This document shows, piece by piece, positions 11,475-32,094 of a DNA stretch of 64,000 nucleotides. Under the pieces are notes generated by a model. The model did no database searches and was not told the origin of the DNA. It worked only from the letters and a program-made list of their open reading frames with translations. The stretch is from sequence record LC788708.1, one strand, 5' to 3'. Numbering within the stretch: the stretch's first letter is position 1; each line of letters opens with the position of its first letter. Source of the stretch: Escherichia coli phage AZ21. Made by a program: the position numbers and the translations under genes.

Positions 11475-11645
11475 ATGAAATCAGTTGTAATTATTGGTGT
11501 TAACACTCGCGGTATTCGTACTACGAAAACTGTTAAAACTTCTAACGTTGCTGAAATCACTACGAACCCTAAAAAGTTTGATTTCGCCAAAGTCTCAGCA
11601 GTTATGACAGAACAATCTTTTAACCAAGCATTGGGGATGAAATAA
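11475..11645 (+). CDS. hypothetical small protein (56 aa, below ORF-track cutoff)
   Basis: Promoter plus RBS GAGAGGAAG then ATG; stop overlaps next start (ATAATG). Confidence 0.4.
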   Translation: MKSVVIIGVNTRGIRTTKTVKTSNVAEITTNPKKFDFAKVSAVMTEQSFNQALGMK

Positions 11646-12079
11646 TGGGTGAAAATATTCTAATGACCCTTCGTGGACTGCTTAGTCTAGCACGTACCCA
11701 CGGTGATAAGGAGAGGGCACTTAATCTTCAGACCATGATTGGTGATCTGCAACGTATTGATAAAGACATTGTTACTCGAACCGAGTTCGTAGCCTATCTG
11801 AAAGCTCAGATTAAGGCTCTAGAAAATGCAAAACAACGCGCTATTAAAGTTGGTACGGAAGTTCCTACTGATGTAGACTATGAGCAACTGCTTTATTCCA
11901 TGCTGCAAGAGTATCAGCCAAGTCAACTGACTGAAGTTCAGATTCGTGAGTATTTTGCAGAACTGGTTAAATTAAACCCAGGTATTACCAAAGCTCTATT
12001 AATGAAAACTATTAAGGCAGAATTTCCTGGACGTTATGACGGTAAAACAACTGCTTTGATTGCTAGTGAATTTTTCTAA
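11645..12079 (+). CDS. hypothetical protein
   Basis: 144 aa, coupled to upstream small ORF. Confidence 0.45.
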   Translation: MGENILMTLRGLLSLARTHGDKERALNLQTMIGDLQRIDKDIVTRTEFVAYLKAQIKALENAKQRAIKVGTEVPTDVDYEQLLYSMLQEYQPSQLTEVQIREYFAELVKLNPGITKALLMKTIKAEFPGRYDGKTTALIASEFF

Positions 12080-12767: not shown

Positions 12768-12842
12768 CGGGGTGTAGTCTAAGGGAGAGGCAGGAGTCTT
12801 CTAAATTCCTTTATGCAGGTTCGAATCCTGTCACCTCGGCCA
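12768..12842 (+). tRNA. tRNA-Arg (anticodon UCU), CCA encoded
   Basis: Acceptor CGGGGTG/CACCTCG, anticodon stem GGAGT/ATTCC with loop CTTCTAA, T-arm GCAGG-TTCGAAT-CCTGT. Confidence 0.65.
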
Positions 12843-12876
12843 ATTTTATTAACTGTAACTAAAACAAAGGAAACAT

Positions 12877-13824
12877 ATGTTTAATACTAAAAATATGAAA
12901 GAATTGACTTCTGAGCAGAAAGTAATTCGTACTATTAAACGTTGGGGTATTGGTGCTGTAGTTGGTTTAGCAGGTTTAATCCTAGCTTTTAATTCGTATA
13001 CCATTGTTTCTGATGGTACGGTTAAAACCCAAACATTCCTGGGTAAAGTAGACCCTAATCCAGTATTACCTGGTTTCCATCTTGTAAACCCGTTTGCATC
13101 TTTCGATACTTTTAGTACGAAAGATATTTCTATGAAACTGGATAAACTTCAGGTTCCTAGCCAGGATAAGTTTAAGTCTACAGTTGACATTACCGTTATG
13201 TTGCAGTTTGATGGTGCTAAAGCTCCTATTAACCGTGTTAACGCAGGTACTCAGGATCAAGCTCTGAACAAGTACGTTGAAGAGAAGATGCTGTCTACGA
13301 TTCGTGAGTTTGGTAAGTCTGTACCAAAAGCACAAGATCTGTTCGACGCTAAGATTCAGGCTCAACTGCAAACCGCTATTCAGCAAGAAGTAGAAGAGTA
13401 TGCGCGTCCTTATGGCTACACCGTTAAGCAAGTATTCCTTCAGGATATTACTCTGCCACCGGTAATCATGGAACAGGTACAAAACACCAAAGTTCGTGAA
13501 GAACAAGTTAACGCTGCAAAAGCTGAACTAGCTCGTGTTGAACAAGAAGCACAGCAGAAAGTTAAGCAAGCTGAGGCTGATCGTTCTGCTCGTGAAAATA
13601 TGGCAGTAGCTAACGAACGTGACGCAGATGCTAAACTGTATGCGGCTAAGAAAGAAGCTGAAGCTAACACCGCTCTGCAGCGTACCATCACTCCAGAGAT
13701 GATTCGCTGGAAACAGCTGGAAGTTGATATGAAACGCGCTGAAAAATATCAGGGTGGCGTTCCTCAGACTGTTGTAGGTACTGGTTATGATGGCCAGATG
13801 ATTATGGATATGCGTAATAAGTAA
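12877..13824 (+). CDS. SPFH/band-7 (prohibitin/HflKC-like) membrane protein
   Basis: N-terminal TM helix, SPFH-like core, long Ala/Glu/Gln-rich coiled-coil tail. Confidence 0.55.
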   Translation: MFNTKNMKELTSEQKVIRTIKRWGIGAVVGLAGLILAFNSYTIVSDGTVKTQTFLGKVDPNPVLPGFHLVNPFASFDTFSTKDISMKLDKLQVPSQDKFKSTVDITVMLQFDGAKAPINRVNAGTQDQALNKYVEEKMLSTIREFGKSVPKAQDLFDAKIQAQLQTAIQQEVEEYARPYGYTVKQVFLQDITLPPVIMEQVQNTKVREEQVNAAKAELARVEQEAQQKVKQAEADRSARENMAVANERDADAKLYAAKKEAEANTALQRTITPEMIRWKQLEVDMKRAEKYQGGVPQTVVGTGYDGQMIMDMRNK

Positions 13825-13848
13825 TAGTTACACGTAATCTTCGAAACA

Positions 13849-13882
13849 AGCCCGCGTTTCCTCCGAGAGCGCGGGCTTTTCT
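13849..13882 (+). terminator. rho-independent terminator
   Basis: AGCCCGCG...CGCGGGCT hairpin followed by TTTTCTG. Confidence 0.7.
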
Positions 13883-14027
13883 GTATTTAAGGCAAAAGAA
13901 AAGCCCATAAGTTATTCAACTAAGGTCTTTAGTACTTAATTCTTTAGAATCATATACTATTATTGCAGCAACAACGTGCTACCACTAAATGCCCTACGAT
14001 TTTCCTCTAAAAAGTTAAAAAATTCGA

Positions 14028-14056
14028 TTGCTTGAATGCTAAATTCTCTGTATAAT
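14028..14056 (+). promoter_or_regulatory. sigma70 promoter (T5 early type)
   Basis: TTGCTT-17-TATAAT then TTATAAATTTGAGAGAGG leader. Confidence 0.65.
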
Positions 14057-14086
14057 ATATTTATAAATTTGAGAGAGGAATCAAAT

Positions 14087-14383
14087 ATGAAACGCATTGT
14101 ACTTGCATTGACTCTAGTATCTACTTCTGTATTTGCTGCTCCACAACAGGAACTTTGTCAAGTTCAAGTTTGTAATAAGCTAGAACGATTTACTTTGGAT
14201 ATTTGGTCACACATTAAAGATAATATGGGTGAGCAATGTTTTGATATTGTTCTGCCAAAAGAACAAGCTGTTCCTGGTGCTGTTCTCAGCTCAGAATCAC
14301 GTTGGTGGCAAGGTTCTTCTATCAATCCAACTAAGAAGTCAGTGACACGTATCAAACAAGTGTATCAGTGCAGTGTTCAGTAA
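14087..14383 (+). CDS. small secreted Cys-containing protein
   Basis: Signal peptide MKRIVLALTLVSTSVFA; track ORF trimmed to RBS-supported ATG. Confidence 0.45.
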   Translation: MKRIVLALTLVSTSVFAAPQQELCQVQVCNKLERFTLDIWSHIKDNMGEQCFDIVLPKEQAVPGAVLSSESRWWQGSSINPTKKSVTRIKQVYQCSVQ

Positions 14384-14391
14384 AATTTCAC

Positions 14392-14420
14392 TTGCTTAAT
14401 GCCGAAATTTTCTATATAAT
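14392..14420 (+). promoter_or_regulatory. sigma70 promoter (T5 early type)
   Basis: TTGCTT-17-TATAAT. Confidence 0.65.
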
Positions 14421-14451
14421 ATATTCTATAAATTATAGATAGGAGTCATAT

Positions 14452-14970
14452 ATGACTGTTGACGAGTTAAAACAACATCTTTTATCTAGGGGCTTTGATA
14501 GTGATAAGTATCACTGTTGGCTCTCTCCACATGGATGGTTAACAGTTCCACTGTATGATTTCTCTGGCATGTTACGTGGATATCAAACATATAACCCTAG
14601 TGCAGCTAAAGGTCATGGAAAATGTCCTTCTGAAGCTAAATATTTTACGCATTCTTCTACTCAATGTCTATGGGGTTTAGAAACTCTTACAGGTAATGAA
14701 GACCTAGTATTAGTTGCAGAATCTGTATTTAAAGCTGTGGCACTACACAACGCGGGATATCCCGCACTAGCAATGCTAGGATCTTCCCCTAGCAAAGCAC
14801 TGCTAAAGCAGCTAAAATTACAACCTTTTAAAGTAGTAGCCGTAGGCGATAATGATTCTGCTGGTGAGAAGTTTGCTAAAAAACTAAATGGGTTTACTTC
14901 CCTCATGGATTTAGATGAAATGAATACAGAAAACTTGAAAAATTTTCTTGCCATGAAGCTAAATTTCTAA
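14452..14970 (+). CDS. Toprim-domain protein (primase-like fold)
   Basis: Toprim-like conserved Glu (LVLVAESVF) and DxD (VAVGDNDSAG). Confidence 0.4.
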   Translation: MTVDELKQHLLSRGFDSDKYHCWLSPHGWLTVPLYDFSGMLRGYQTYNPSAAKGHGKCPSEAKYFTHSSTQCLWGLETLTGNEDLVLVAESVFKAVALHNAGYPALAMLGSSPSKALLKQLKLQPFKVVAVGDNDSAGEKFAKKLNGFTSLMDLDEMNTENLKNFLAMKLNF

Positions 14971-14976
14971 TATAAT
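14948..14976 (+). promoter_or_regulatory. sigma70 promoter inside the 3' end of the preceding CDS, ahead of tRNA pair
   Basis: TTGCCA-17-TATAAT then CATAAATTTGG; tRNA starts about 15 nt downstream. Confidence 0.55.
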
Positions 14977-14990
14977 ATATTCATAAATTT

Positions 14991-15084
14991 GGAAGATTAA
15001 CCCTAAAGGTAAGGGAGCTGTTTGCTAAACAGCCAGTAGCTGTGGAGACACGGTGTGCCAGTTCGAATCTGGCATCTTCCTCCA
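14991..15084 (+). tRNA. tRNA-Ser (anticodon GCU), long variable arm, CCA encoded
   Basis: Acceptor GGAAGAT/ATCTTCC, anticodon stem GCTGT/ACAGC with loop TTGCTAA, T-arm GCCAG-TTCGAAT-CTGGC. Confidence 0.7.
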
Positions 15085-15089
15085 AATTT

Positions 15090-15167
15090 GGTTCTCAAGC
15101 TCATTTGGTATGAGCCGTCGCCTCATAAGCGAAAGGTAGGCAGGTTCGAATCCTCCGGGAGCCACCA
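15090..15167 (+). tRNA. tRNA with CAU anticodon (Met or Ile2), CCA encoded
   Basis: Acceptor GGTTCTC/GGGAGCC with G-U pairs, anticodon loop CTCATAA, T-loop TTCGAAT. Confidence 0.65.
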
Positions 15168-15186
15168 AATTAAATAAGGACAACTA

Positions 15187-15375
15187 ATGGAATTATTCAT
15201 AGTTTCTATTAAATTTGCACAAGATAGAGAACATTCGGACGAGTTTAAACAAGGGTACAGACTAGTAAAGGCTACATCTGAACTACATGCTATGGACAAA
15301 GTAGTAGACTATATGTATAAAGTAGAAGACGTTTACTACGTCAATGCTTTAGAAGCCTCAAAAGTAATTAACTAG
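15187..15375 (+). CDS. hypothetical protein
   Basis: RBS AAGGA then ATG. Confidence 0.3.
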   Translation: MELFIVSIKFAQDREHSDEFKQGYRLVKATSELHAMDKVVDYMYKVEDVYYVNALEASKVIN

Positions 15376-15383
15376 GAGACTAT

Positions 15384-15569
15384 ATGTCCAAATTTCAAGA
15401 ACTCAAGCAAGAGCTAGAAGAGTGTGCCTGCCCAAAATGCTTCGGAGTAGGTGAGTGGAACGATGCTGAACCCGGTGATACACGGTATAATACATACGTT
15501 TGTACATATTGTAATGGTTCTGGTATTAATCCTGAATGTGGTATTTCTCTAGACATTGAGCGAGGTTAA
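15384..15569 (+). CDS. small zinc-finger-like protein
   Basis: Two CxxCxGxG-like motifs (CPKCFGVG, CTYCNGSG). Confidence 0.4.
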   Translation: MSKFQELKQELEECACPKCFGVGEWNDAEPGDTRYNTYVCTYCNGSGINPECGISLDIERG

Positions 15570-15909
15570 GATGGATATTTTTACTACTCCGGCAATAAAC
15601 CTTTTAGGTGTTGGCTTGTTCCAAGCTACGGTGTATCGTACTGATGATTCTACTGATGTGGTAACGTTCATCGTACCTGAGTTCTTCCTAGAAAAGTTCT
15701 TTGAAGAGTTTGAGCAGTTCCGTGAAGAACACAATGCTCATTCCGATATGGAAGATCTAGCAGCTATGTTCCCTGCGGTTTACGGCTATATCTTTGAAGG
15801 TAATGGCCTAGATCTTAATAAATCTGAACTCGTTGAACTTAACTGGGGCATCAATTTTGAAGTTGGCTCTCCATTCCCTCGATATTTCCAGGGTTTAGAG
15901 ATTCGCTAA
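15556..15909 (+). CDS. hypothetical acidic protein
   Basis: Start overlaps upstream stop. Confidence 0.4.
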   Translation: MSEVKMDIFTTPAINLLGVGLFQATVYRTDDSTDVVTFIVPEFFLEKFFEEFEQFREEHNAHSDMEDLAAMFPAVYGYIFEGNGLDLNKSELVELNWGINFEVGSPFPRYFQGLEIR

Positions 15910-15917
15910 GATTACAT

Positions 15918-15994
15918 GGGGGTGTAATCGAATTGGCATAGGTACTGGACTTAAAATTCAGGTTTTGTGGGTTCGAATCCCACCACCCCTACCA
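15918..15994 (+). tRNA. tRNA, anticodon apparently UAA (isotype uncertain), CCA encoded
   Basis: Acceptor GGGGGTG/CACCCCT, anticodon stem CTGGA/TTCAG with loop CTTAAAA, T-arm GTGGG-TTCGAAT-CCCAC; short variable loop is atypical for Leu. Confidence 0.5.
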
Positions 15995-16145
15995 AATTAA
16001 GGAAATAAAATGAAAGCTATTAAGAAAGCACTGCGTAAATTTATGTATTGTCGTTTTCATAGCATCAAGGCTTCAACTAATGGTACTACTTACGATCGCT
16101 ATGATCCTAAGTTTGGCTTACATTCTAAATAACTGGAGAAAACAA

Positions 16146-16352
16146 ATGGCTAATCCTGAAATTACGGCACAACGCTTTATGCTGAAAGGAATTATTGCTG
16201 AAGCAGGCATGACAGAAGAAGTTGCAGATTTTCAAAAGCAATTCCTCAATATTCTCACTCAAGCCAAAGAGCTAGGAGAGAAAGAACATGGCGCGGCTAT
16301 TATGGCAATCACATTGGTTGGGCTTGATCTGGCTGAAGAATCAGGAGTTTAA
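16146..16352 (+). CDS. hypothetical protein
   Basis: RBS CTGGAG then ATG; track ORF trimmed. Confidence 0.35.
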   Translation: MANPEITAQRFMLKGIIAEAGMTEEVADFQKQFLNILTQAKELGEKEHGAAIMAITLVGLDLAEESGV

Positions 16353-16382
16353 CTCCTCCAAGCAGAAATTTTAAAAATGTAC

Positions 16383-16412
16383 TTGCTTTTTGCTTAAGAT
16401 TTCTGCTATAAT
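16383..16412 (+). promoter_or_regulatory. sigma70 promoter (T5 early type)
   Basis: TTGCTT-18-TATAAT then AAGTTGATGAGAGG leader. Confidence 0.6.
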
Positions 16413-16441
16413 AGTTATATAAGTTGATGAGAGGAATCAGA

Positions 16442-16717
16442 ATGTTAAAACGTTTTGCAGCAACTGGTATTGAAAGCTCAGTATGTAAATCCTGGGGTGG
16501 TTGGGAAGGTGAGATCGAGTGGCTTCAGTTCTACAATGTAGAACTTCTTCCAGAGATCAAAGCTCAATGTATTGAGGCTGGTATGGCTCCTGATGCTACG
16601 GCTGATGTTGAAATCAGCATGAATAAGCTAGAGGGTCGAGTAGTCACTGTTACTGATGAAGGTGAAGAGGTATTCGAACTTCCATTCACTTTGAAAGTCA
16701 CTCCTTCATTTGATTAA
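16442..16717 (+). CDS. hypothetical protein
   Basis: RBS GAGAGGAATC then ATG. Confidence 0.4.
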   Translation: MLKRFAATGIESSVCKSWGGWEGEIEWLQFYNVELLPEIKAQCIEAGMAPDATADVEISMNKLEGRVVTVTDEGEEVFELPFTLKVTPSFD

Positions 16718-16753
16718 CTGATACAGCACTGAGCAAGTTCTTTAAAATTTGAC

Positions 16754-16782
16754 TTGCTCAGTGCCTTAAAACTTGATATAAT
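16754..16782 (+). promoter_or_regulatory. sigma70 promoter ahead of tRNA-Tyr
   Basis: TTGCTC-17-TATAAT. Confidence 0.6.
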
Positions 16783-16847
16783 ATTTATCTAATTTGGAAA
16801 CATATTTAAAAGTGTTTAAATGAGAATTTTTGAATACTTCTAAATAT

Positions 16848-16935
16848 GGGCGTTTATTCCGTAAGTGGTAGCGGAGGGGATTGTAAATCCCTGGTCATTG
16901 CGACTCGAGTGGTTCGACTCCATTAACGCCCACCA
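16848..16935 (+). tRNA. tRNA-Tyr (anticodon GUA), long variable arm, CCA encoded
   Basis: Acceptor GGGCGTT/AACGCCC, anticodon stem GGGGA/TCCCT with loop TTGTAAA, T-loop TTCGACT. Confidence 0.7.
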
Positions 16936-16952
16936 AATTAAAGGTAAAGGAT

Positions 16953-17144
16953 ATGTATATTGATCGGATAATTCAAGAAGCTGCAAATAGGGGTATTATA
17001 CAGTTGGGTTCACCCGCTGATATAAATAAAGATCTAATATTAGAAAGCCTCACATTTGGTACAGCTAACTTTGGTCGCGATAGTAATCGTCGATATAGCT
17101 TGAAGTTATCTGCACTATCTTTTATCAAGTATAACAAATTATAG
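16953..17144 (+). CDS. hypothetical protein
   Basis: 63 aa between two tRNAs; weak support. Confidence 0.25.
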   Translation: MYIDRIIQEAANRGIIQLGSPADINKDLILESLTFGTANFGRDSNRRYSLKLSALSFIKYNKL

Positions 17145-17218
17145 TTAGTTGGCAGAGTGGTTATGCACCTCCTTCATACGGAGCGACTACAGTGGTTCAA
17201 CTCCACTACTAACTACCA
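17143..17218 (+). tRNA. tRNA with CAU anticodon (Met or Ile2), CCA encoded
   Basis: Acceptor AGTTAGT/ACTAACT, anticodon loop TTCATAC, T-arm AGTGG-TTCAACT-CCACT. Confidence 0.6.
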
Positions 17219-17401
17219 AAGATAAGATCAGGCCTTTGTGCCAGATCTCTGTGTTTATTAAACTGAATGGGACTATCAATCCACAAGCCGGACTACGAGC
17301 GATTATCGGGTATTCACTTAATAAACAGCCTGCCTCCCAGTTTTTATCTTGCTTCTGGGTTAACAAAAAGCTGAGCCAAATTCTAACATCAGGGAGATCT
17401 A

Positions 17402-17770
17402 ATGAAAGCATATCAAAGTCTTAAGTCTGGCGTAATTAACCTTGTTCATGATAACCAGATCATTCAGCTATATTCTAAAGATGGTGAACTTAAACAAAAG
17501 GTTCTAGTTGAAGATCTAGAGGGTATCACACCTCATTTTGACCCTGAGGCCTTCCGCATTGTAGATGTAGAAGTGGTTCCTCAAGTCGAGGGTGGTCAGC
17601 ACCTAAATGTCAATGTGTTAAGCCGTGATCAGCTTTTGGATGCACAGAAACATCCTGAAAAATATCCTCAGTTGACCATCCGTGTCTCTGGCTATGCTGT
17701 TCGATTTAACGCATTGACGCGTGAACAACAGAACGACGTTATTAGTCGTACATTTACTCAGGCGATATAA
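17402..17770 (+). CDS. grcA: GrcA/YfiD-like autonomous glycyl-radical cofactor protein
   Basis: C-terminus [12 protein letters not shown]...[40 protein letters not shown] is near-identical to the PFL/GrcA glycyl-radical domain (RVSGYAVRF radical motif); RBS GGGAG. Confidence 0.8.
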
Positions 17771-17851
17771 TGGGGTTTGGATACGATTTCTCCCAACTAC
17801 GCAAGGTAGTCGAGCAAACTCCATTTATCTCCCAAGTTTTAGGAGAAATGT

Positions 17852-18151
17852 GTGGATCGAGCATTAAGACGCCATCACCGGCAACGTGTGAAAAACAATC
17901 GCAAGAAGTATTGGACAGTCTTCCCACATGAAGAAAGCCCTAAGAGGTTAGGCATTATCACTACCACTCCTTGCATCTGTTCTTGTTGGATGTGTGGGAA
18001 TCCTCGCAAATACTATAAGAATAGTAAAGCAGGCATGAAAATTTCGGAGATTAAAAAGATGGATGCAATGATTATGGGCATCACCTTTACAGGTGGTATC
18101 TCTGATGAATTCGACGGTTTTGTAACTCAGGATATTGTCGAAATTATCTAA
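17852..18151 (+). CDS. hypothetical Arg-rich, Cys-cluster protein (GTG start)
   Basis: RBS AGGAG 6 nt before GTG; CICSCWMCG cluster. Confidence 0.35.
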   Translation: MDRALRRHHRQRVKNNRKKYWTVFPHEESPKRLGIITTTPCICSCWMCGNPRKYYKNSKAGMKISEIKKMDAMIMGITFTGGISDEFDGFVTQDIVEII

Positions 18152-18161
18152 TTAATAATAA

Positions 18162-18196
18162 ACCCCAGCTATTGAATACGTAGTCTGGGGTTTTCT
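18162..18196 (+). terminator. rho-independent terminator
   Basis: CCCCAG...CTGGGG hairpin then TTTTCTTG. Confidence 0.65.
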
Positions 18197-18215
18197 TGTA
18201 TATAGGATTTTCGAA

Positions 18216-18401
18216 ATGAAAATTTTTAAAGTGAACTATAGCGGCCTGTGGTTAGGTGGTACAGCTATTGTTGTTGCGGAAACTGCGGAAGAAGCAATCG
18301 AACTGGCTAGAAATCATAGAAGTTCTATAGAATTCGAGAATGTGACAGCAGAAGAACTCCCTAGCAGTGGGGTAGTATACAACGATAACGGAGACTACTA
18401 A
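18216..18401 (+). CDS. hypothetical protein
   Basis: 61 aa. Confidence 0.3.
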   Translation: MKIFKVNYSGLWLGGTAIVVAETAEEAIELARNHRSSIEFENVTAEELPSSGVVYNDNGDY

Positions 18402-27123: not shown

Positions 27124-27987
27124 ATGAAAAAAGAATTTAATGTACATAAAACTCTAGTAGTGCCTGATGATGCCAACTTGTTTTTCGTTGGTGATATTCA
27201 TGGATGCAATGATTTGCTAGAAGATGCGTTGAAGTTAGCTGGGTATAATAGCAAAAAAGATTGCGTAGTATGTGTCGGAGACTTAATAGACCGAGGCACA
27301 CAAAACCTACAAGTTTTAGCCAAATTCCTGTATAATCCACGTTTTATCAGTGTACGTGGTAATCATGACCAATTTATGATTGTAGGAGATTGGGCTAATT
27401 GGATGTATAATGGTGGTATGTGGGCTATGAATGAACTAGATGCAGACACCATTAAAAATATTGCCGAAGATATGGCTGAAAAAATGCCAGTATTCCTAAC
27501 TGTTAGACATCGTGGTAAGAAGTTTGGTGTTGTTCATGGTGGTGTACCTTTTACGTACAAAGAATGTGGTAATGAAGTAGAAACCCCAGTATGGGATAAT
27601 CTTATTGCACAAATAGAAGCAGCTAAGGAAAACCCACATGACCATCCTGAATACCATATTGAACCATATTTATGGGATCGAGATGTAATCCAAGAAATAG
27701 GCTTCTACTTGTCCAAAAATGGTGAGGAACACCCGTATTTCCAGCGTTATGCAGGATTTAAAGAAAAATACATGGTAGAAGTGCCAGAAGTTAAAGGTGT
27801 AGATTTCGTGTTTCACGGACATACTGGAGTTCCTTACCCACTTCTTTATAAGAACCGTGTTTATCTTGATACTGGCGGTGTTTTCAACGGGCAGTTGACG
27901 GTTGCGCAAGTTAACGATGAAACTGGCAAAATCACCACATTTACCACAGATAAAAATAATAGCTGCGGTGTACAGAGGATTCTTTAA
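27124..27987 (+). CDS. Ser/Thr protein phosphatase-type metallophosphatase
   Basis: GDIHG, GDLIDRG, GNHD motifs. Confidence 0.7.
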   Translation: MKKEFNVHKTLVVPDDANLFFVGDIHGCNDLLEDALKLAGYNSKKDCVVCVGDLIDRGTQNLQVLAKFLYNPRFISVRGNHDQFMIVGDWANWMYNGGMWAMNELDADTIKNIAEDMAEKMPVFLTVRHRGKKFGVVHGGVPFTYKECGNEVETPVWDNLIAQIEAAKENPHDHPEYHIEPYLWDRDVIQEIGFYLSKNGEEHPYFQRYAGFKEKYMVEVPEVKGVDFVFHGHTGVPYPLLYKNRVYLDTGGVFNGQLTVAQVNDETGKITTFTTDKNNSCGVQRIL

Positions 27988-31653: not shown

Positions 31654-32094
31654 ATGAGAGAAAAAGTAAATGAATTACTAATCGAGGAAGCTAACAACTT
31701 TCCAATAAATAGGTTTGTCAAATCTGATGGATCTATTAATAGAACTAAGATTAAGCAGCTACATCCCGACTTTCAACAAGAAGCACTAAACCTTATATTT
31801 ATCAAGAAAGCTGTTGCAGTTCATGGGGCTTTCTTTGGGTATGAGCGTGTAAATTACAAAACAATGCAACAGCAAGTCGAGATCTACTGTCCAGATCATG
31901 AAGGGTATTATTGGCAAACTGCTAGATCTCATTTAGAAGGGCATGGTTGTCGACTGTGTGCACACAAGGTTGTGCAGCGTGTCACGGATTATGGAACTTA
32001 TACCGTACCAGCATGTTATCATAAATTTGTAGTTGACGATAATCATATAGTTTGGTATAATAAGTTTTCAAAGTTAAGAATGGAGATAAAATAA
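31654..32094 (+). CDS. hypothetical Cys/His-rich protein
   Basis: CPDHEG...HGCRLCAH motif. Confidence 0.35.
   Translation: MREKVNELLIEEANNFPINRFVKSDGSINRTKIKQLHPDFQQEALNLIFIKKAVAVHGAFFGYERVNYKTMQQQVEIYCPDHEGYYWQTARSHLEGHGCRLCAHKVVQRVTDYGTYTVPACYHKFVVDDNHIVWYNKFSKLRMEIK

Follow-up and report, generated by a model that had tools for sequence, protein, structure and literature searches.

A GrcA-like glycyl-radical protein of the T5-like Escherichia coli phage AZ21, a putative spare part for pyruvate formate-lyase of the host

Background

According to the passages of PMC8683613 that deal with Wagner et al. 2001, only two glycyl-radical spare-part proteins have been validated biochemically, Y06I of phage T4 and YfiD (GrcA) of E. 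coli; both have a glycyl radical put on by the activating enzyme of pyruvate formate-lyase (PFL), and both restore the activity of oxygen-cleaved PFL. Furthermore, GrcA rescues the PflB-G734A variant in vivo (PMC12338860). The T4 gene vs.6 carries the RefSeq product name 'autonomous glycyl radical cofactor GrcA'. On the basis of this name and of the reported size of approximately 14 kDa, vs.6 is here taken to be the Y06I of the literature. Proteins of this kind have been known since 2001 and constitute an established phage gene family, which is ordinary for T5-like phages. A literature search for T5 or T5-like phages together with PFL or glycyl radical found no paper on the T5-type protein.

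Here we analyse such a gene of E. coli phage AZ21. The whole stretch of DNA that was studied, in the following called the window, has a length of 64,000 nt, and positions refer to it where not stated otherwise. An earlier note, made from the letters of the window without database searches, had described the gene as phage-encoded, host-derived and GrcA-like.

Results

Gene structure and radical domain

The GrcA-like open reading frame is intact, with an ATG at 17402 and a TAA at 17768-17770 on the plus strand. Its Shine-Dalgarno sequence (GAGATCTAATG) is kept in T5 and in Salmonella phage misterkot. The gene and its parts are as follows.

17402..17770, plus strand: GrcA-like coding sequence, 122 aa (open reading frame with Pfam, NCBIfam, PHROG and PDB matches; orthologue of T5.056, homologue of T4 vs.6/Y06I)
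17392..17396, plus strand: Shine-Dalgarno sequence GGGAG, 5 nt before the ATG, read from the sequence
17402..17581, plus strand: N-terminal half, aa 1-60, diverged, beta-rich by AF2 prediction
17582..17767, plus strand: glycyl-radical domain, aa 61-122 (PF01228 and PDB alignments), containing the RVSGYA motif

G97 (codon 17690-17692), embedded in R94-V-S-G97-Y-A99, carries the radical site. In an alignment of 30 phage and bacterial homologues, the RVSGYA motif, whose radical glycine corresponds to G102 of GrcA and G734 of PflB, is invariant in 30 of 30 sequences, and the AZ21-type protein keeps all of the 36 columns that are invariant in this alignment.

Compared with GrcA and PflB in database searches, the protein gives significant glycyl-radical alignments. 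BLASTP against PflB yields 5.8e-33, the aligned part being PflB 677-760 only; the phage protein covers the C-terminal ~8% of PflB. The best PDB matches concern YfiD/GrcA (6owr, 2.4e-29) and PflB (1.7e-26), aligned over YfiD 53-126 and PflB 698-758, the latter opposite aa 61-121 of the phage protein. Pfam PF01228 (Gly_radical) matches aa 62-103 (4.7e-18, 66 bits against a cut-off of 22.2), and the NCBIfam models GrcA, GrcA2, GrcA3 and PFL match at 1e-24 to 1e-34 (GrcA model 2.4e-34). The AF2 model of the domain shows a helix, a Gly-tipped hairpin and a second helix; in a Foldseek search against structures it retrieves 6owr (5e-6) and the PFL structure 1cm5 (4.5e-4).

Over the last 62 aa, the identity is 83.9% to TdcE, 79.0% to GrcA and 77.4% to PflB of E. 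coli. For the 29-residue peptide that the earlier note had cited, which corresponds to residues 94-122, 27 of 29 positions are identical to TdcE, 24 of 29 to PflB and 22 of 29 to GrcA, counted by eye. The earlier description of the C-terminal ~60 residues as near-identical to the PFL/GrcA radical domain is thus right as to the domain, which is matched far beyond chance, but with 77-84% identity the wording was generous.

At the level of families, PHROG 1209 matches over the full length (7.5e-47, aa 1-122 on profile positions 1-121 of 121). Homologues were found in 1,583 phage records, among them T4-like phages, large phages of Vibrio and Aeromonas, and jumbo phages of approximately 350 kb infecting Klebsiella, Salmonella and Yersinia. 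Scored with the equivalog model for GrcA in NCBIfam (TIGR04365, IPR011140), the AZ21 protein reaches 118.3 bits over aa 54-121 only, below the cut-off of 170. With the same model, E. coli GrcA scores 234 bits, T4 Y06I 151 bits and a jumbo-phage homologue 137 bits. Since the validated Y06I also falls below 170, this cut-off shuts out known functional phage members. The PFL model (TIGR01255) is matched at profile positions 683-743 only, with 84 bits against a cut-off of 994. The similarity to PflB and TdcE (77-84% identity for aa 61-121 on PflB 698-758) does not extend to the ten-stranded barrel of ~700 residues, which is absent from the AZ21 protein together with the catalytic Cys418/Cys419. 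Therefore, it is not a formate-lyase. Taken at the level of sequence, these comparisons support the AZ21 protein as a phage member of the GrcA/YfiD-like spare-part group, with a radical domain of the PFL type and not of the NrdD type.

The N-terminal half

The earlier note had called the N-terminus diverged, and this is borne out: the bacterial GrcA model starts at aa 54, and a direct comparison of N-terminal profiles by hhalign (the N-terminal 61 aa against bacterial GrcA N-termini) aligns only aa 50-61, with a probability of 11%. Other phage types provide a bridge. The T5-type N-terminus matches other phage GrcA N-termini with 92% probability over aa 32-61, and these in turn match the bacterial GrcA N-termini over the whole region (96%, E 1.2e-9). 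Homology of the T5-type N-terminus to that of GrcA is accordingly supported by way of these phage types only, and least so in the first ~30 residues. In the 30-sequence alignment a loose N-terminal pattern is common to phage and bacterial proteins, with Q5 nearly invariant, and the T5-type proteins possess ~7 additional residues (DGELKQK) compared with the other homologues. Given this insertion and first ~30 residues without detectable similarity to bacterial GrcA, target recognition could differ.

Searched alone against 1.8 billion representatives, aa 1-60 occurred in no other protein; the only matches were a fragment of this very gene (46 aa) and a spurious one to a PPR repeat. Likewise, Foldseek against the PDB and viral models found no match to the N-terminal fold, only to the radical domain or to other phage GrcA-like proteins.

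AF2 predicts beta strands for the N-terminal half (pLDDT 83-89), followed by a linker of low confidence (62-71). A control prediction for E. coli-type GrcA gave a similar beta-rich N-terminus (pLDDT 82-87), so that the prediction supports likeness to GrcA and no phage-specific novelty. YfiD residues 1-60 in isolation are disordered by NMR, and the YfiD N-terminus matters in the binding and activation of cleaved PFL (cPFL; PMC8683613). A folded N-terminal domain as a novelty of the phage was therefore rejected: the control yields similar strands, yet NMR finds disorder. By analogy to YfiD residues 1-60, aa 1-60 of the phage protein are likely the element that binds damaged PFL.

Comparison with the T4, T5 and E. 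coli proteins

T4 vs.6/Y06I is similar to the AZ21 protein in length (120 versus 122 aa), in its MKAYQ start and in the two-part layout; the two are 51% identical from end to end, both belong to PHROG 1209, and the 10-residue core is the same. Together with the PFL-type domain and the full-length PHROG match, this resemblance supports the reading as a GrcA-like spare part that had been proposed from the letters alone. There are also clear differences. The radical domain of vs.6 is 95% identical to E. coli GrcA in protein and 95.7% to grcA in DNA (last 186 nt), whereas AZ21 reaches 70-74% in DNA. Moreover, vs.6 has the enterobacterial two-residue insertion, the AZ21/T5-type N-terminus is more diverged and ~7 residues longer, and vs.6 lies in the vs/regB region, in contrast to the tRNA cluster of T5-like phages.

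As a separate observation, T4 vs.6/Y06I (positions 11558-11920 of the T4 locus L002) looks chimeric, with an N-terminus of the phage type and the last 62 codons grcA-like. Judged by its sequence, this suggests a recent recombination with host grcA.

E. coli GrcA (YfiD, 6owr) shares with the AZ21 protein the radical domain (79% over 62 aa), a similar size, an N-terminal half predicted to be beta-rich and PflA as the presumed activase. It differs in that the AZ21 protein stays at 118 bits against the equivalog cut-off of 170 and in that the N-terminal ~50 residues lack a direct alignment. In addition, the AZ21 gene is phage-borne and is not expected to be under the regulation of host grcA.

T5.056 of phage T5, which has further orthologues in Markadamsvirinae, is the orthologue of the AZ21 gene with 93% identity; it likewise is located after a tRNA-Met and, like the AZ21 gene with its T5.055 homologue, before T5.055 and the conserved terminator. 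However, the spacer from the tRNA-Met to the gene is 13 nt in T5 and 183 nt in AZ21.

Selection, distribution and origin

For AZ21 versus the T5 gene we obtained dS 0.64, dN 0.041 and dN/dS 0.065. By halves, dN/dS is 0.09-0.15 for aa 1-60 (0.094 versus T5) and 0.01-0.03 versus T5 for aa 61-122 (0.026). These low values in both parts, with other pairs alike, indicate purifying selection on both halves. With tblastn, ~438 phage records have the gene at 80% identity or more, compared with ~440 records that have the NrdB of the clade at the same threshold. Thus, the GrcA-like gene belongs, in effect, to the core genes of the T5-like phages.

Compared with E. coli grcA, pflB and tdcE, the DNA identity over the last 186 nt amounts to 70-74%, which marks the gene as an old resident of the phage lineage and no recent capture. 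Its GC content is 41%, compared with 39% for the whole window and 48% for E. coli grcA. In a neighbour-joining tree of the radical domain, the T5-type proteins form a clade of their own with 92% bootstrap and are surrounded by other phage proteins; deeper nodes lack support. That the gene was captured recently from tdcE or pflB of E. coli was rejected on the basis of the DNA identity, the phage-like GC content and this tree. The term host-derived in the earlier note can consequently stand for the deep past only; a recent origin from the host disagrees with the DNA identity, the phage-like composition and the core status in the T5-like clade.

Genomic setting and expression

E. coli phage AZ23 (LC788707, Tequintavirus, Demerecviridae) matches the locus with 100% identity, which confirms that the gene is phage-encoded, and many T5-like phages of Salmonella and Escherichia match it with 99.7-99.9%. 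Position 1 of the window corresponds to AZ23 position 32073, and the two are essentially identical in sequence and collinear except for one cassette. The neighbourhood of the gene contains these elements.

17143..17218, plus strand: tRNA-Met (CAU), upstream of the GrcA-like gene (ARAGORN; Rfam tRNA 49.5 bits)
17852..18151, plus strand: 99-aa open reading frame, T5.055 homologue, PHROG 4499 of unknown function (2.7e-39), position conserved in T5 and other T5-like phages
18160..18199, plus strand: hairpin and U-run, predicted Rho-independent terminator (MFE -17.1 kcal/mol, z = -4.1), aligning with the T5 terminator at 27219-27251

The gene forms the end of the phage tRNA gene cluster, and the order tRNA-Met, GrcA-like gene is also found in T5, misterkot and EC148. 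A sigma-70 scan around the gene found no more sites than in shuffled sequence. With no promoter of its own above chance, we treated the gene as part of the transcription unit of the tRNA cluster and took the timing of its expression from its position and the T5 annotation. Transcription is probably on the plus strand together with the tRNA cluster, which in T5 lies among early genes. The 99-aa open reading frame and the GrcA-like gene are probably co-transcribed as far as the conserved terminator, and the hairpin at 18160-18199 is likely the Rho-independent terminator that ends this unit. In the 99-aa product the N-terminus is basic and the cysteines include a cluster (TPCICSCWMCGNPRK); a Pfam search with it gave no match. 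Eight neighbouring open reading frames, checked for functional partners, belong only to families of unknown function.

Several further observations concern this region. The spacer that separates tRNA-Met from the GrcA-like gene (17219-17401) varies in length, from 13 nt in T5 through 183 nt in AZ21 to 371 nt in misterkot, and in EC148 a 64-aa open reading frame is annotated inside it. Two short copies containing GATC, '...AGATCAGG' and 'GGGAGATCTAATG', flank the extra DNA. Scanned with Rfam, the region 14900-18300 yielded tRNAs only, and no RNA family in the 183-nt spacer. In the window, only six tRNA genes were detected, all within 12768-17218 (Arg, Ser, Met, Leu, Tyr, Met), whereas the T5 annotation lists about fifteen tRNAs and several stable RNAs in the corresponding 8 kb; the AZ21 cluster is thus much reduced or rearranged. 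The tRNA-Tyr at 16848-16935 gives in Rfam only a sub-threshold match resembling tRNA-Sec. At the junction 14041-14090, AZ21 is devoid of a nadR-pnuC cassette of about 1.8 kb present in AZ23 (locus L006, 12250-14041). In AZ23 this cassette is flanked by a direct repeat of ~47 bp consisting of a -10 box, a ribosome binding site and an ATG (TCTGTATAATATATTTATAAATTTGAGAGAGGAATCAAATATG), of which one copy is present in AZ21. The arrangement suggests that a cassette was gained or lost when promoter-RBS repeats recombined. No record of the phage collection matched the AZ21 junction with both high identity and high coverage.

Discussion

A probable spare part for host PFL

By analogy to T4 Y06I and E. 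coli GrcA, we consider it probable that the AZ21 protein serves as a spare radical part that repairs the PFL of the host and is activated by host PflA during infection. The course of events may be pictured as follows. The protein would be expressed from the tRNA-cluster transcription unit. Oxygen would cleave PflB, possibly also TdcE, at the radical glycine, and PFL would lose its C-terminal 26 residues. The phage protein might then dock onto the cleaved enzyme, with its C-terminal 62 residues standing in for the radical domain. Host PflA, the PFL-activating enzyme of the radical SAM type, would generate the radical on Gly97, from where it would move to Cys419 of PflB, and the cleavage of pyruvate could restart.

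With E. coli PflA and NrdG as queries, tblastn found nothing in AZ23 positions 1-97,913, a range which covers the window and all but the last ~6 kb of AZ23. From this we infer that activation must rely on host PflA. AZ23 also encodes an anaerobic ribonucleotide reductase, NrdD (locus L008, 28954-30801), ~1.3 kb upstream of position 1 of the window and sharing 54% identity with residues 113-705 of E. coli NrdD; with neither NrdG nor PflA found, both glycyl-radical proteins of the phage appear to be dependent on activating enzymes of the host. The pflB, tdcE and grcA paralogues are present in each of 5,426 out of 5,426 complete E. coli genomes.

T5 destroys the host DNA and shuts off host gene expression. 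Under such conditions, GrcA and PflB would no longer be resupplied, and a phage copy would sustain fermentation. It would replace the stress-induced GrcA of the host and might keep up fermentative energy and acetyl-CoA in the low-oxygen gut. If so, this is a clean case of a phage-borne repair part for a host enzyme of central metabolism. Furthermore, the GrcA-like gene and the phage NrdD together suggest that T5-like phages are adapted to a gut low in oxygen.

Alternative clients and functions

The same chemistry might serve another client, namely mainly TdcE, the 2-ketobutyrate/pyruvate formate-lyase, or TdcE and PflB together. It is to TdcE that the last 62 aa and the segment 94-122 are closest, and tdcE is the best blastn match in most E. 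coli genomes. However, the difference amounts to only 3-4 residues in 62, the signature DVISRTFT occurs in other phage homologues as well, and the neighbour-joining tree, with its deep nodes unsupported, places the T5 clade among phage proteins and not with TdcE. In addition, TdcE is a minor, threonine-induced enzyme. We therefore regard TdcE as an unlikely main or joint client and treat this possibility as a lesser variation on the repair of host PFL.

The N-terminal half, specific to the clade with its ~7 additional residues, under purifying selection and seen in no other protein, raises another thought. It might retarget the radical domain, for instance so that the radical is delivered to PflB or TdcE that is undamaged or of full length but inactive, or so that another partner is recognised. 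We give this little chance; if true, the phage would have its own control over host fermentation, beyond simple repair.

The diverged N-terminus with its clade-specific insertion would also suit a decoy or inhibitor that ties up host PflA or occupies PFL and in this way shuts down or redirects fermentation, the more so as the phage, having no activase of its own, must engage PflA. This appears quite improbable because all 36 invariant columns are kept, including the glycine and its flanks, and because the radical domain is the most constrained part (dN/dS 0.01-0.03 versus T5), as expected of a working cofactor. Moreover, according to the passages on the T4 homologue in PMC8683613, that protein restores PFL activity.

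NrdD is likewise a glycyl-radical enzyme, and a spare part for the phage's own NrdD could come to mind from the proximity of that gene in AZ23 and from records that label fragments of the GrcA-like gene 'ribonucleotide reductase subunit'. Yet BLASTP against phage or E. coli NrdD gave no alignment at E <= 10, compared with 5.8e-33 for PflB, and the NrdD motif is RVCGY in a zinc-ribbon context as opposed to RVSGY in the AZ21 protein. The lack of similarity and the different motif context render a role in NrdD repair very unlikely.

Finally, a decaying, functionless fragment captured from a host gene of the pfl family, as might be imagined from the coverage of only the C-terminal ~8% of PflB and from the many records that misname the gene, has practically no probability and is refuted by the data on selection and distribution, with an intact open reading frame and Shine-Dalgarno sequence, a dN/dS of about 0.06 over dS 0.64, a presence in ~438 of ~440 clade members and a conserved N-terminal half that is absent from PflB. 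Repair of host PFL remains the reading which we prefer.

Annotation of the gene in databases

The labels given to the same gene are inconsistent and could be corrected. T5.056 is annotated as 'putative acetyltransferase-related protein' from InterPro IPR001150, and across records the names 'pyruvate formate-lyase', '2-ketobutyrate formate-lyase', 'acetyltransferase(-related) protein', 'glycyl radical cofactor' and 'hypothetical protein' occur, the last of these in AZ23. The label 'ribonucleotide reductase subunit' is given to a C-terminal fragment of 67 aa. Genes with 98% identity are already labelled 'glycyl radical cofactor', and the T5 record has a glycine-radical InterPro match.

Two records show the T5-like gene under unexpected host names, 'Campylobacter phage A148' (MG065642, 113 kb) with 97.5% and 'Listeria phage LM 4-14-1' (OR848450, 6.3 kb) with 94.3% protein identity. 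This points to hosts that are mislabelled or to preparations contaminated with a T5-like phage.
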